A stretch of DNA of 64,000 nucleotides from a phage: the NCBI GenBank assembly GCA_033759635.1, contig GCA_033759635.1_4528.1; one strand, 5' to 3'. Positions within the stretch are counted from its first letter, which is position 1; each line of letters begins with the position of its first letter. Below are positions 10,789-11,648 of this stretch, in pieces. A program made the translations under genes and the position numbers. Under the pieces are notes generated by a model. That model did no database searches, was not told where the DNA came from, and worked only from the letters and a program-made list of their open reading frames with translations.

Positions 10789-10862
10789 GGCCCTGTAGCT
10801 CAACGGTTAGCAGCAGTCCCCTCATAAGGGAAAGGTTACCAGTTCGAATCTGGTCTGGGTCA
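10789..10862 (+). tRNA. tRNA with CAU anticodon (Met, or Ile if lysidine-modified)
   Basis: Hand-folded cloverleaf: acceptor GGCCCUG/CUGGGUC (one U-U mismatch), anticodon stem UCCC/GGGA with loop CUCAUAA, T-arm ACCAG-UUCGAAU-CUGGU; CCA not encoded. Confidence 0.65.
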
Positions 10863-10868
10863 TATATT

Positions 10869-10945
10869 CGAGGCATAGCTCAATTGTATAGAGCAACGGA
10901 CTTCTAATCCGTAGGTTGAAGGTTAGAATCCTTCTGTCTCGACCA
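10869..10945 (+). tRNA. tRNA-Arg (anticodon UCU)
   Basis: Acceptor CGAGGCA/UGUCUCG, D-arm GCUC...GAGC, anticodon stem ACGGA/UCCGU with loop CUUCUAA, T-arm GAAGG-UUAGAAU-CCUUC, encoded CCA end. Confidence 0.8.
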
Positions 10946-10963
10946 ACTTTAAGTGAGGAAAAT

Positions 10964-11308
10964 ATGAAAGGCAATGTTTATCTGGTAGTTCATGATTTAA
11001 CGTTTTATTTTAACGAATATGATACAGTTATTTCTCATCGATTGATTAATTCGCTGTATCAGCATGCCGATTACATCTATGTTCAAAATGAATTTGGTCA
11101 TTGGAAGTTCATTAAAAACCGTTCCGGGTTAACTAGTTTTGAATACTTTGACCGTAAAGACCTTTTAAACGAAATCCCATTGCAACATCGGTTTCAGAAA
11201 CGCGAATCATTATATTATTGCCGTCATATACCAAACGCCGAATGTGTTGATGAAGCAATTAATCTATGGCGTAGACGTAGAGAACAAATTGATGATATGC
11301 CAAAATAA
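10964..11308 (+). CDS. hypothetical protein
   Basis: ORF 10916..11308 overlaps tRNA-Arg; trimmed to the Met with GAGGAA RBS (MKGNVYLVVHDL...). Confidence 0.5.
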   Translation: MKGNVYLVVHDLTFYFNEYDTVISHRLINSLYQHADYIYVQNEFGHWKFIKNRSGLTSFEYFDRKDLLNEIPLQHRFQKRESLYYCRHIPNAECVDEAINLWRRRREQIDDMPK

Positions 11309-11309
11309 G

Positions 11310-11618
11310 AAGCCGGGTCGCTACCGGCAAGTCGTCGGACTGATGTTCCCTGAGTAAGGACTGGTCTTAATAAATCTTTATGATTCGTTAATATCCCCTT
11401 ACATCACAGCAGAAACGGCGCACAGAATTATCGATTCGAGGAAATATCTTTGCCGTAAGCCGAGTAGCGTTTTTGACGGAACGTTCGGATATGGTCGAGA
11501 TATGGCCTTTTAAAAATATTGAGTAGCGTCAACTGCTTAATAACCGGGTTCGAATCCCGGCGTTTCGTACAAACACTTGCCTTAGCAGGTGGAACCCCGA
11601 CAAGGTTACCGCAAGGCT
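11310..11618 (+). ncRNA. ORF-free structured region downstream of the tRNAs; candidate small stable RNA(s)
   Basis: About 300 nt with no plausible plus-strand ORF; contains a perfect T-arm-like element CCGGG-TTCGAAT-CCCGG and a 7-bp acceptor-like pairing (CGGAACG/CGTTTCG), but no clean anticodon arm could be folded; ends in a strong terminator. Confidence 0.3.
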
Positions 11619-11619
11619 T

Positions 11620-11648
11620 AGCCCCTTCCGAAAGGTTGGGGCTTTTTT
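11620..11648 (+). terminator. rho-independent terminator (repeated cassette, copy 1)
   Basis: AGCCCC-ttccgaaaggtt-GGGGCT followed by TTTTTT. Confidence 0.7.

Follow-up and report, generated by a model that had tools for sequence, protein, structure and literature searches.

Phage T4 makes two abundant stable RNAs, RNA C and RNA D, known since the 1970s. Their genes (rnaC, NC_000866 70908-71046; rnaD, 71053-71171) lie at the 3' end of the T4 tRNA operon in the order rnaD, rnaC, terminator, downstream of eight tRNAs and segB. A middle promoter just 5' of the cluster drives this operon, and the cluster gives rise to a single transcript of ~1.75 kb, with termination after the species I RNA gene (PMC2330249). 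Both RNAs are seen by northern blot as late RNAs (PMC9697503). Reviews of 2010 and 2022 call their function unknown (PMC3014915, PMC9697503), and no trans function has been reported in 50 years (PMC3014915).

Other RNAs resemble tRNA in part. Both tmRNA and the bacterial Y-RNA-like YrlA combine an acceptor/T-arm mimic with non-tRNA parts, as RNA C does in the model presented below. tRNA enzymes process tmRNA and YrlA to their mature forms. The tRNA-like part of YrlA lies inside the molecule, whose ends make up the Ro-binding stem, whereas the ends of RNA C form an acceptor-like stem. A further comparison is with the phage tRNAs that counter tRNA-targeting immunity: these take part in decoding and stand in for host tRNAs that have been cleaved (PMC10264068, PMC11555353, PMC11464382).

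The locus considered here lies in 64,000 nucleotides of phage DNA (the window). A sequence-only reading had singled out positions 10789-11648 as a minimal set of two tRNAs followed by about 300 nt that lack an ORF and contain a perfect T-arm-like hairpin, a 7-bp acceptor-like pairing about 90 nt apart, and a strong terminator. Two explanations were offered: a degenerate long-arm tRNA, or small stable RNAs like T4 RNA C/D.

The tRNA and stable-RNA operon

The window is assigned to a Mosigvirus, an RB69-like T-even phage. Positions 10700-11720 are 93-98% identical to the listed Escherichia/Shigella phage records, among which ATK47 and SA79RD, the only matched records whose taxonomy was read, are Mosigvirus. 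Positions 11303-11647 align with T4 70830-71173 at 91.9% identity (92% over 346 nt). This alignment spans rnaD, rnaC, and the terminator, and the T4 annotation carries rnaD and rnaC at the matching stretch. The ORF-free stretch is identified by homology as the orthologue of T4 rnaD and rnaC, and hence as an element already known; the second of the two explanations was the right one. The rnaC gene matches T4 rnaC at 137 of 139 positions (98.6%), and rnaD is 84.3% identical to its T4 counterpart, with invariant 5' and 3' thirds. Moreover, the oligonucleotide used as the T4 RNAC northern probe (PMC9697503) matches 11431-11488 with 0 mismatches, and a covariance model built from 21 homologues (R1) recognizes rnaC over the full model length with 172 bits, its only rnaC match in the window. 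Existing annotation agrees: one Mosigvirus record, ATK47, carries rnaC at the same position, and the RB10 and RB9 records carry both genes. The rnaD and rnaC ends given in Table 1 come from the T4 annotation and may be off by at least 1 nucleotide.

Table 1. Coordinates of the features at the locus, numbered along the window
Feature	Positions	Strand	Details and basis
MotA-box-type middle-promoter-like motif	10699..10726	+	ATTTGCTTTA, 12 nt, TATTAT; motif scan; directly 5' of the tRNA genes
tRNA(CAU), T4 tRNA-Ile orthologue	10789..10862	+	ARAGORN; Rfam RF00005, 52.4 bits
tRNA-Arg(UCU), reads AGA	10869..10945	+	ARAGORN; Rfam, 71.1 bits
114-aa ORF, RB69ORF150c type	10964..11308	+	ORF list; between tRNA-Arg and rnaD
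rnaD orthologue (T4 species 2 RNA, ~120 nt)	11305..11424	+	Ends transferred from T4 annotation by alignment
A/U-rich spacer between rnaD and rnaC	11425..11430	+	G-AAUUA; sequence; conserved in T4
rnaC orthologue (T4 species 1 RNA, 139 nt)	11431..11569	+	T4 homology; covariance model R1
RNA C acceptor-like stem, 7 bp	11432-11438 with 11561-11567	+	CGAUUCG pairs with CGUUUCG; covariation
RNA C 70-nt arm in the D-arm place	11439-11508	+	Apical loop UUGACG, 11473-11478
RNA C anticodon-position arm, 10 bp	11517-11542	+	Loop CGUCAA, 11527-11532
RNA C T arm	11544-11560	+	CCGGG-UUCGAAU-CCCGG, 5 bp and 7-nt loop
Conserved trailer	11570..11620	+	Two small hairpins, 11574-11591 and 11593-11607; fold
Intrinsic terminator	11621..11648	+	GCCCC-UUCC-GAAA-GGUU-GGGGC, then U6; fold

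The locus as a whole is best read as the tRNA/stable-RNA operon of an RB69-like (Mosigvirus) T-even phage that includes rnaD and rnaC on a presumed single transcript, a reading to which we give a probability of roughly 0.88. The transcript would run from tRNA-Ile(CAU) through tRNA-Arg(UCU), the 114-aa ORF, rnaD, and rnaC to the terminator. Its driver would be the putative MotA-type middle promoter, whose surroundings (10690-10737) are 87.5% identical to T4 72589-72636, just 5' of the T4 tRNA cluster. A motif scan for the T4 late promoter (TATAAATA) found none near the RNAs; the near-matches were one inside rnaC and one past the terminator.

The order rnaD, rnaC, terminator at the 3' end of the operon is shared with T4, as seen in alignments and the T4 annotation, and the gene lengths are nearly so (rnaC 139 nt in both, rnaD 119 nt in T4 and 120 nt here). 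T4 rnaD begins 2 nt after tRNA-Arg, whereas here the 114-aa ORF stands between them, which is a difference in context, not in the RNA. Only two tRNAs precede the RNAs, without segB. T4 rnaD ends in an encoded CACCA; the gene here ends in CACAGA.

The minimal tRNA set stands as proposed and is a known RB69-type condition: ARAGORN and, independently, Rfam at gathering score find the same two tRNAs, and only these, in the 64 kb. The tRNA(CAU) shares 97.3% identity with the T4 gene annotated as tRNA-Ile. CAU tRNAs of T4-like phages are tRNA-Ile of the lysidine type (PMC1524935), and this one is classed likewise, rather than as tRNA-Met; it is predicted to read AUA once lysidine-modified. By contrast, tRNA-Arg(UCU) is only 53.7% identical to T4 tRNA-Arg and therefore is not its orthologue but a different gene. 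Its 3' end is similar to that of Dhakavirus tRNA-Arg.

The proposed strong terminator is also present. It is conserved in T4, where the stem is fully paired, and in Dhakavirus, and a stem pair changes from C:G to G:C, with compensation, in VR5 and IME08. A simple terminator scan passed over it because of its internal U·U mismatches. In the trailer that precedes it, GCAGGUGGAACCCCGACAAGGUU does not vary between T4, this phage, and Dhakavirus; the last keeps this sequence although rnaC is absent there. Trailer and terminator together are 91.1% identical to T4.

Folds of RNA C and RNA D

The fold computed for the rnaC segment reaches -50.2 kcal/mol (z = -4.55), and none of 200 shuffles did as well. 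The comparison set comprises 27 distinct rnaC homologues from seven named genera and unclassified relatives, and on this basis RNA C is modelled as a tRNA-shaped four-way junction with its arms in tRNA order. Pairing was evaluated in two alignments. In the MAFFT alignment of 21 sequences, 92.1% of cells pair, compared with 38-46% in slid controls, and both sides change in 26 pairs, compared with 3-9. The model alignment of 27 sequences gives 90.6% compared with 38-49%, with both-side changes in 31 pairs compared with 7-10.

Several features of the model are those of a canonical tRNA (RF00005). The 7-bp acceptor-like stem adjoins the 5-bp T stem, a tRNA trait, and each contains one compensatory pair: A:U to G:C in the acceptor-like stem, G:C to U:A in the T stem. 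The loop UUCGAAU fits the tRNA T-loop consensus, so that the T-arm-like hairpin of the sequence-only reading is indeed there. In addition, rnaC occurs within tRNA arrays, and Marfavirus-type copies encode a 3' N-CCA (U-CCA). The tRNA-like elbow, however, appears not to be strictly conserved, because the CIP9 group has lost the T-loop consensus (UGCAUGC).

Other features are unlike those of a canonical tRNA. RNA C is predicted to have no D arm, with the 70-nt hairpin in its place; phages of Klebsiella, Citrobacter, and Salmonella keep the fold of this long arm but build it from unrelated sequence. The stem of the anticodon-position arm is 10 bp long and its loop 6 nt, the acceptor-like stem contains two invariant tandem U·U mismatches, and the 3' end is UACA rather than NCCA. 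The sequence-only reading was half right about the acceptor-like pairing: complementary segments ACGGAAC (11476-11482) and GUUUCGU (11562-11568) exist, but the 5' partner was the wrong one. That pairing (rnaC 46-52 with 132-138) shows no covariation among the 27 homologues, scores below all 500 shuffles, and has one pair broken in 15 of the 27 sequences; evolution instead backs the 5' end of the RNA as the partner.

The apical loops of the two arms, UUGACG and CGUCAA, can pair with each other over 6 bp. Across the homologues these pairs are 100% paired, with an A:U to G:C exchange in four Marfavirus-type sequences (one Klebsiella-phage lineage), and the loop columns form the most conserved class (0.975, compared with 0.79 for stems). 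This suggests a kissing loop between the two apical loops, on the strength of invariance and one compensatory event in a single lineage, a pattern that fits intramolecular and intermolecular pairing alike. A 6-bp kissing complex would lock RNA C and hide the anticodon-like loop.

RNA D is modelled as a rod that carries a hairpin at its 5' end and a tip that can be exchanged. The 5' hairpin (GCCGG-GUCGCUA-CCGGC) lies at 11312-11328, and a long-range stem pairs 11331-11337 with 11416-11423 beneath a variable apical hairpin. The consensus fold from 18 distinct homologues comprises 24 pairs, compensatory changes are seen in 6, and the segment folds with z = -2.66 relative to shuffles. Both homology and conserved fold place rnaD with T4 species 2 RNA. 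An rnaD mutation is the only one common to three T4-like phage lines adapted to E. coli ECOR34 (PMC12685909); this SNP could be standing variation. A comparison by eye of conserved unpaired stretches in RNA D and RNA C turned up only a 6-nt complementarity (GAAACG/CGUUUC), which is not conserved where rnaD is missing, and it was dropped.

Spread and annotation of the two RNAs

Judged from the homologues found, rnaC is spread over many genera of Enterobacteriaceae phages, rnaD is limited to the T-even groups of E. coli, and each can be lost. The phage homologues number roughly 800 in all, near-identical sequences included. Dhakavirus precisely lacks rnaC. In Karamvirus, Moonvirus, and Gelderlandvirus, rnaC lies within tRNA arrays, flush between genes (Trp, rnaC, Gly). 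rnaD had no match in phages of hosts other than E. coli. A metagenome scan with the conserved rnaC ends returned 53 loci, only 3 of them real and all of known types. A viral scan with the loop pattern made only one addition, a chance match to an ordinary long-arm tRNA, and among 185,579 species genomes there were 58 chance-level matches, 0 of them recognized by model R1. As far as the scanned patterns can see, the rnaC family looks confined to phages.

No family in Rfam 15 matched 11305-11648 beyond chance-level snoRNAs, isrK, and tRNA-Sec, whether gathering thresholds or E <= 10 were applied, because no Rfam family holds RNA C or RNA D. Among the tRNA models tRNA-Sec came closest to RNA C, with 16.6 bits where the cut-off is 47. 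Neither ARAGORN nor RF00005 finds a canonical decoding tRNA in 11305-11648, where a D arm and a 7-nt anticodon loop are likewise missing. There is no tmRNA by ARAGORN in the window, none by Rfam, and no tag reading frame; the only YrlA match in the region sits on the genuine tRNAs (17.8 bits, cut-off 69). The sequence-only reading would have counted a missing covariance-model match, together with a missing stable transcript from 11310..11618, against its proposal. No match came, yet the region is rnaD/rnaC, so that this criterion would have misled.

The tRNA-likeness of RNA C shows in other ways as well. Model R1 also matches genuine tRNAs, with 19-29 bits; ARAGORN reports a "tRNA-Phe" inside the Pet-CM3-4 homologue; and some GenBank records annotate tRNA-Lys or tRNA-Asn at the homologous place. 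Many deposited genomes have a "hypothetical protein" over rnaC or rnaD. Although the element itself is not new, what is added here is a comparative model of RNA C: the tRNA-shaped frame, the invariant U·U mismatches, and the covarying loop-loop pairing. The model could seed an Rfam family and so put an end to "hypothetical protein" and spurious tRNA annotation at the locus.

Processing, possible roles, and rival readings

Host tRNA-maturation machinery would excise RNA C and RNA D from the precursor. The A/U-rich spacer between them is likely an endonucleolytic processing site. RNase E prefers RN|WUU, and so would be the enzyme to cut there; RNase P would act at the acceptor-like stem, with trimming of the ends left to 3' exonucleases. 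These enzyme roles are drawn from tRNA-likeness and from T4 work of the 1970s-80s. The compact folds would let both RNAs persist.

The locus bears on an old question, the role of two abundant phage RNAs known since the 1970s (PMC3014915, PMC9697503). The wide spread of rnaC, the narrow spread of rnaD, the loss of each in places, and the reportedly adaptive rnaD SNP (PMC12685909) suggest host-dependent accessory functions. One speculative and quite tentative proposal casts RNA C as a tRNA mimic that does not decode but ties up or draws away a host factor recognizing the acceptor/T-arm half of tRNA. Candidate factors would be a tRNA-directed defence nuclease or a maturation enzyme; in that case both RNAs would be accessory and dependent on the host rather than essential. 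The T4 tRNA region is reportedly dispensable. The phage tRNAs that counter immunity offer a plausible frame for such a mimic, being also accessory genes in tRNA clusters with host-dependent benefit. Unlike them, RNA C cannot decode, and the likeness rests on gene context, not on any link to a defence system. A bolder version seems unlikely: that RNA C founds a family of phage tRNA mimics not yet catalogued, acting in trans as a decoy or inhibitor with its anticodon-position loop locked by the kissing contact with the long arm and only its acceptor/T-arm face exposed, and helping, with RNA D, to set which natural E. coli strains can be exploited. The targets of such a decoy might be a nuclease of tRNA-directed immunity or an enzyme that works on the 3' ends of tRNA.

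Alternatively, RNA D and RNA C could be cis-acting structured spacers (processing guides, or shields against 3' exonucleases) that are left over as inert by-products and have no role in trans. Their place at the 3' end of the operon beside the terminator, in T4, Mosigvirus, and Dhakavirus, accords with this, as do the 50 years without a trans function (PMC3014915) and the loss of either RNA while the tRNAs stay. However, rnaC sits mid-array rather than 3'-terminal in Karamvirus, Moonvirus, and Gelderlandvirus; a spacer needs neither invariant complementary hexaloops nor invariant U·U mismatches; and the adaptive rnaD SNP suggests a phenotype (PMC12685909). We consider a purely cis-acting role rather improbable.

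The complementary loops might instead be an inverted repeat in the DNA, with TTGACG/CGTCAA as the half-sites for a dimeric protein. The dyad is perfect, with half-sites 48 bp apart, and the Marfavirus variant (TTGGCG/CGCCAA) preserves it. Yet each half-site is exactly the apical loop of an RNA hairpin with a covarying stem, a change of site would also require the binding protein to co-evolve, and the spacing varies (85-88 nt from the start of loop 1 to the end of loop 2 in true homologues). A DNA site is accordingly very improbable, and pairing between RNA loops is the preferred reading.

There is scarcely any more room for the first explanation of the sequence-only reading, a decaying long-arm tRNA gene without a function of its own. 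It would account for the T arm with its canonical loop, the acceptor-like stem, the weak tRNA-Sec match, and the tRNA calls in Pet-CM3-4 and the GenBank records. But decay is expected of a pseudogene, whereas rnaC is 98.6% identical to T4 and the flanking protein genes only 75-83%. Compensatory changes keep all helices, the non-tRNA long arm included, across the seven genera and their relatives; conservation is highest in the two loops that have no tRNA counterpart; and T4 makes RNA C as a discrete stable RNA (PMC9697503). A maintained RNA, not a degenerate tRNA, is what these observations describe.

That the stretch codes for small proteins can be practically dismissed: two mechanical ORFs cross it (74 aa on the - strand, 11428-11652; 49 aa on the + strand, 11519-11668) and many records annotate a "hypothetical protein" there, but 1- and 2-nt insertions and deletions fall inside these ORFs among homologues, no open frame is conserved across the 27, the substitutions are base-pair-preserving doubles rather than third-codon-position changes, the - strand ORF runs antisense through the terminator, and the long arm is replaced with the fold kept in Klebsiella, Citrobacter, and Salmonella phages. 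Apart from those two short ORFs, the description of about 300 nt as ORF-free is accurate for the + strand, where 11309-11692 holds no ORF of at least 60 aa.

Upstream of the structured region, the span 10789-11648 also contains a real-looking gene, the 114-aa ORF, whose stop codon overlaps the rnaD 5' end. Pfam gave this ORF no family above cut-off, and for the three neighbouring ORFs Pfam and PHROGs together matched only families of unknown function. The ORF is missing from T4 and Dhakavirus, where rnaD adjoins tRNA-Arg directly. It belongs to PHROG 3355 (unknown function, E = 3e-50) and is annotated as RB69ORF150c-like in the Mosigvirus records ATK47 and SA79RD.

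The T4-type RNA pair

Judged by alignment, the structured element is the already known T4-type pair of RNA D and RNA C: 11303-11647 is 91.9% identical to T4 70830-71173, where the T4 annotation places rnaD (species 2 RNA, 119 nt) and rnaC (species 1 RNA, 139 nt) directly after tRNA-Arg. Small stable RNAs like T4 RNA C/D, the second interpretation offered by the sequence-only reading, were thus the right one. RNA ends in the window are the annotated T4 ends carried across this alignment. Relative to T4, rnaC is 98.6% identical, rnaD 84.3%, and the trailer together with the terminator 91.1%. 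Compared with shuffles, the rnaC segment fold has z = -4.55 (0/200 as good) and the rnaD fold a moderate z = -2.66. The strong terminator was confirmed. The region had been called ORF-free: it holds no + strand ORF of at least 60 aa in 11309-11692, but two mechanical ORFs run through it, one of 74 aa on the - strand and one of 49 aa on the + strand.

Feature coordinates, in window numbering unless rnaC or T4 is named
Feature	Position	Strand	Basis or remark
MotA-box-type motif ATTTGCTTTA, 12 nt, TATTAT	10699-10726	+	motif scan
tRNA(CAU)	10789-10862	+	ARAGORN and Rfam
tRNA-Arg(UCU)	10869-10945	+	ARAGORN and Rfam
114-aa ORF, RB69ORF150c type	10964-11308	+	ORF list; PHROG 3355 (function-unknown family)
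rnaD	11305-11424	+	T4 ends via alignment
A/U-rich spacer, 6 nt	between rnaD and rnaC	+	T4 alignment
rnaC	11431-11569	+	T4 ends via alignment
Trailer, 51 nt	11570-11620	+	after rnaC, before terminator
Terminator	11621-11648	+	as in the sequence-only reading
RNA D 5' hairpin, R-CCGG-GUCGCUA-CCGG-Y			closing pair covaries
RNA D long-range stem			invariant
RNA D inner stem			covarying
RNA D apical segment, ~45 nt			three unrelated versions
RNA C acceptor-like stem	rnaC 2-8 with 131-137		covariation
RNA C long arm, D-arm place	rnaC 9-78		
RNA C anticodon-position arm, 10-bp stem	rnaC 87-112		9/10 pairs covarying
RNA C T arm	rnaC 114-130		G:C alternates with U:A
Counterparts of four intergenic stretches	T4 73509-73589 and 73858-73898		alignment

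In T4, both are late-accumulating RNAs of unknown function, confirmed by northern blot (PMC9697503); the probe oligonucleotide from that study matches 11431-11488 with 0 mismatches. A 2010 review likewise called their roles unknown (PMC3014915).

An rnaC feature already stands at this position in the Mosigvirus record ATK47, and the RB10 and RB9 records carry features for both genes. In most other records the locus bears a 'hypothetical protein' label, or even one for tRNA-Lys or tRNA-Asn (GenBank matches H76, H77, and H87). Rfam 15 contains no family for rnaD or rnaC. With no RNA family model to recognise it, the rnaC locus systematically gives rise to wrong annotations.

Folds of RNA C and RNA D

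The value added here includes a covariation-backed secondary-structure model of RNA C, with a candidate kissing loop. RNA C forms a four-way junction with its arms in tRNA order. In a plain MAFFT alignment of 21 sequences, 92.1% of cells are paired, versus 38-46% when the 3' partners are slid, and both-side changes occur in 26 pairs, versus 3-9 in slid controls. Model-based alignment of the full set of 27 distinct homologues gives 90.6% versus 38-49%, with both-side changes in 31 pairs versus 7-10. The acceptor-like stem combines invariant C:G and G:C pairs; alternation of A4:U135 with G4:C135; and two U·U mismatches, invariant in 27/27. The long arm keeps the same fold, with unrelated sequence, in Klebsiella, Citrobacter, and Salmonella phages.

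The T-arm-like hairpin noted from sequence is present at 11544-11560. The 7-bp acceptor pairing proposed with it (rnaC 46-52 with 132-138) is unsupported, having 0 covarying pairs. That pairing also scored below 500/500 shuffles, and 15/27 sequences break one of its pairs.

The rnaC covariance model, built from 21 homologues, also matches genuine tRNAs in other loci at 19-29 bits. In the Enterobacter phage CIP9 group (loci L004, L013, L034, and L090), the T loop of rnaC reads UGCAUGC, not UUCGAAU, on an intact stem, so that lineage can dispense with the tRNA T-loop consensus. In Marfavirus-type rnaC of Klebsiella phages (loci L039 1500-1640, L040, L053, and L092), an encoded U-CCA follows the acceptor-like stem, as in tRNA genes that encode their CCA end; every other genus has U-ACA.

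Two loops are perfect complements: UUGACG (11473-11478), at the tip of the long arm, and CGUCAA (11527-11532), which caps the anticodon-position arm. In conservation they exceed all other columns of the family (majority fraction 0.975 versus 0.79 for stems). Four Marfavirus-type sequences have UUGGCG and CGCCAA instead, so that A:U has become G:C through changes in both loops. This represents one evolutionary event, so a candidate kissing loop, formed either inside a single molecule or by two together, has genuine but slender support. The hexamers might instead constitute a dyad at the DNA level, a weaker alternative to RNA pairing. The lineage bearing this compensatory change is also the one with U-CCA.

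For RNA D, the consensus fold derives from 18 distinct homologues.

Distribution, probable processing and possible role

A further gain is a map of phage genera by module carried. Dhakavirus VR5 and IME08 keep tRNA-Arg, rnaD, trailer, and terminator; rnaC is precisely absent. Conversely, Kanagawavirus, Moonvirus, Karamvirus, Marfavirus, and Gelderlandvirus, along with unclassified Citrobacter and Klebsiella phages, carry rnaC but yielded no detectable match to rnaD; several of them have rnaC directly abutting a tRNA gene on either side, as in the order Trp, rnaC, Gly. Only Tequatrovirus, Mosigvirus, and Dhakavirus types were seen to carry rnaD. A pattern scan for rnaC in species-representative bacterial and archaeal genomes gave chance-level matches only, none recognised by the rnaC model.

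In T4, a middle promoter gives rise to a single precursor of ~1.75 kb that covers the cluster and ends after the species I RNA gene (PMC2330249). Here, the MotA-box-type motif sits upstream of the tRNA genes in a stretch 87.5% identical to the DNA that immediately precedes the tRNA cluster in T4. By analogy, a single transcription unit would extend from 10699 to 11648, now including the inserted 114-aa ORF. This ORF lies exactly at the tRNA-Arg/rnaD junction, which is direct in T4 and Dhakavirus; CCAA(A) occurs at both borders, and the ORF's stop codon shares bases with the 5' end of rnaD. The trailer contains a 23-nt block, GCAGGUGGAACCCCGACAAGGUU, that does not vary among T4, this phage, and Dhakavirus and is retained even where rnaC is deleted. 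It comprises two small hairpins, and may be a processing signal or a third small RNA.

With identity, folds, and modular distribution established, a maturation route can be proposed. The tRNA-maturation machinery would free RNAs C and D from their precursor, and the two would endure owing to their compactness. The acceptor/T-arm module would suit RNase P; close packing against neighbouring tRNAs in other genera would fit joint processing; and the spacer, ACAGA/AUUAU (slash, putative cut), is consistent with the RNase E preference.

Speculatively, RNA C could be a non-decoding tRNA mimic, showing only its acceptor/T-arm face to some host factor; patchy distribution together with very strong sequence constraint would be consistent with an accessory, host-dependent role. 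When a T4-like phage was adapted to E. coli ECOR34, the sole mutation common to three lines was in rnaD (PMC12685909), and phage tRNA clusters have a known part in countering tRNA-directed immunity (PMC10264068, PMC11555353, PMC11464382). That RNA C is a self-locked tRNA-mimic decoy affecting host range seems improbable.

tRNA genes and neighbourhood

ARAGORN and Rfam agree on two tRNAs across the 64 kb, bearing out the two-tRNA set read from sequence. ARAGORN labels tRNA(CAU) as Met, yet it is 97.3% identical to a T4 gene annotated tRNA-Ile, and CAU tRNAs of T4-like phages have been described as lysidine-modified tRNA-Ile (Nolan et al., PMC1524935). On this basis the pair would read AUA and AGA. 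In long + strand ORFs of the window, AUA has a frequency of 8.7 per thousand and AGA one of 6.1, two to three times E. coli host values. The tRNA-Arg(UCU) is only 53.7% identical to T4 tRNA-Arg, with no BLASTN match, and so is a different, non-orthologous gene. Its divergence beside a conserved tRNA(CAU) indicates that the Arg gene was replaced or independently acquired in an otherwise conserved operon. Its 3' end is similar to Dhakavirus tRNA-Arg. In Cronobacter phage Pet-CM3-4 (locus L006 1247-1342), ARAGORN reports a 96-nt 'tRNA-Phe' inside the rnaC homologue.

Records of Escherichia and Shigella phages (CCU7, SF, phiC120, APCEc01, and Shf125875, for example) match the interval 10700-11720 at 93-98% identity. 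Taxonomy was read for two of the records, ATK47 and SA79RD; both belong to Mosigvirus, the RB69 group within the T-even phages. Neighbours are of T4 type (ipI, trna.4, trna.3, and trna.2 upstream; frd.3 downstream), and flanking protein genes are 75-83% identical to T4.

Past the terminator, the ORF at 11693-12157 begins MKSYAEFLTE, which resembles MKTYQEFIAE, the sequence that targets T4 internal head proteins to the capsid; residues 1-43 weakly match a PHROG 'internal virion protein'. Four short intergenic stretches (8912-9000, 11672-11713, 12207-12277, and 12615-12658) share the same T4 intergenic counterparts around ipI (71-81%). This similarity suggests a repeated promoter/leader or terminator cassette between small ORFs of a hyperplastic region.
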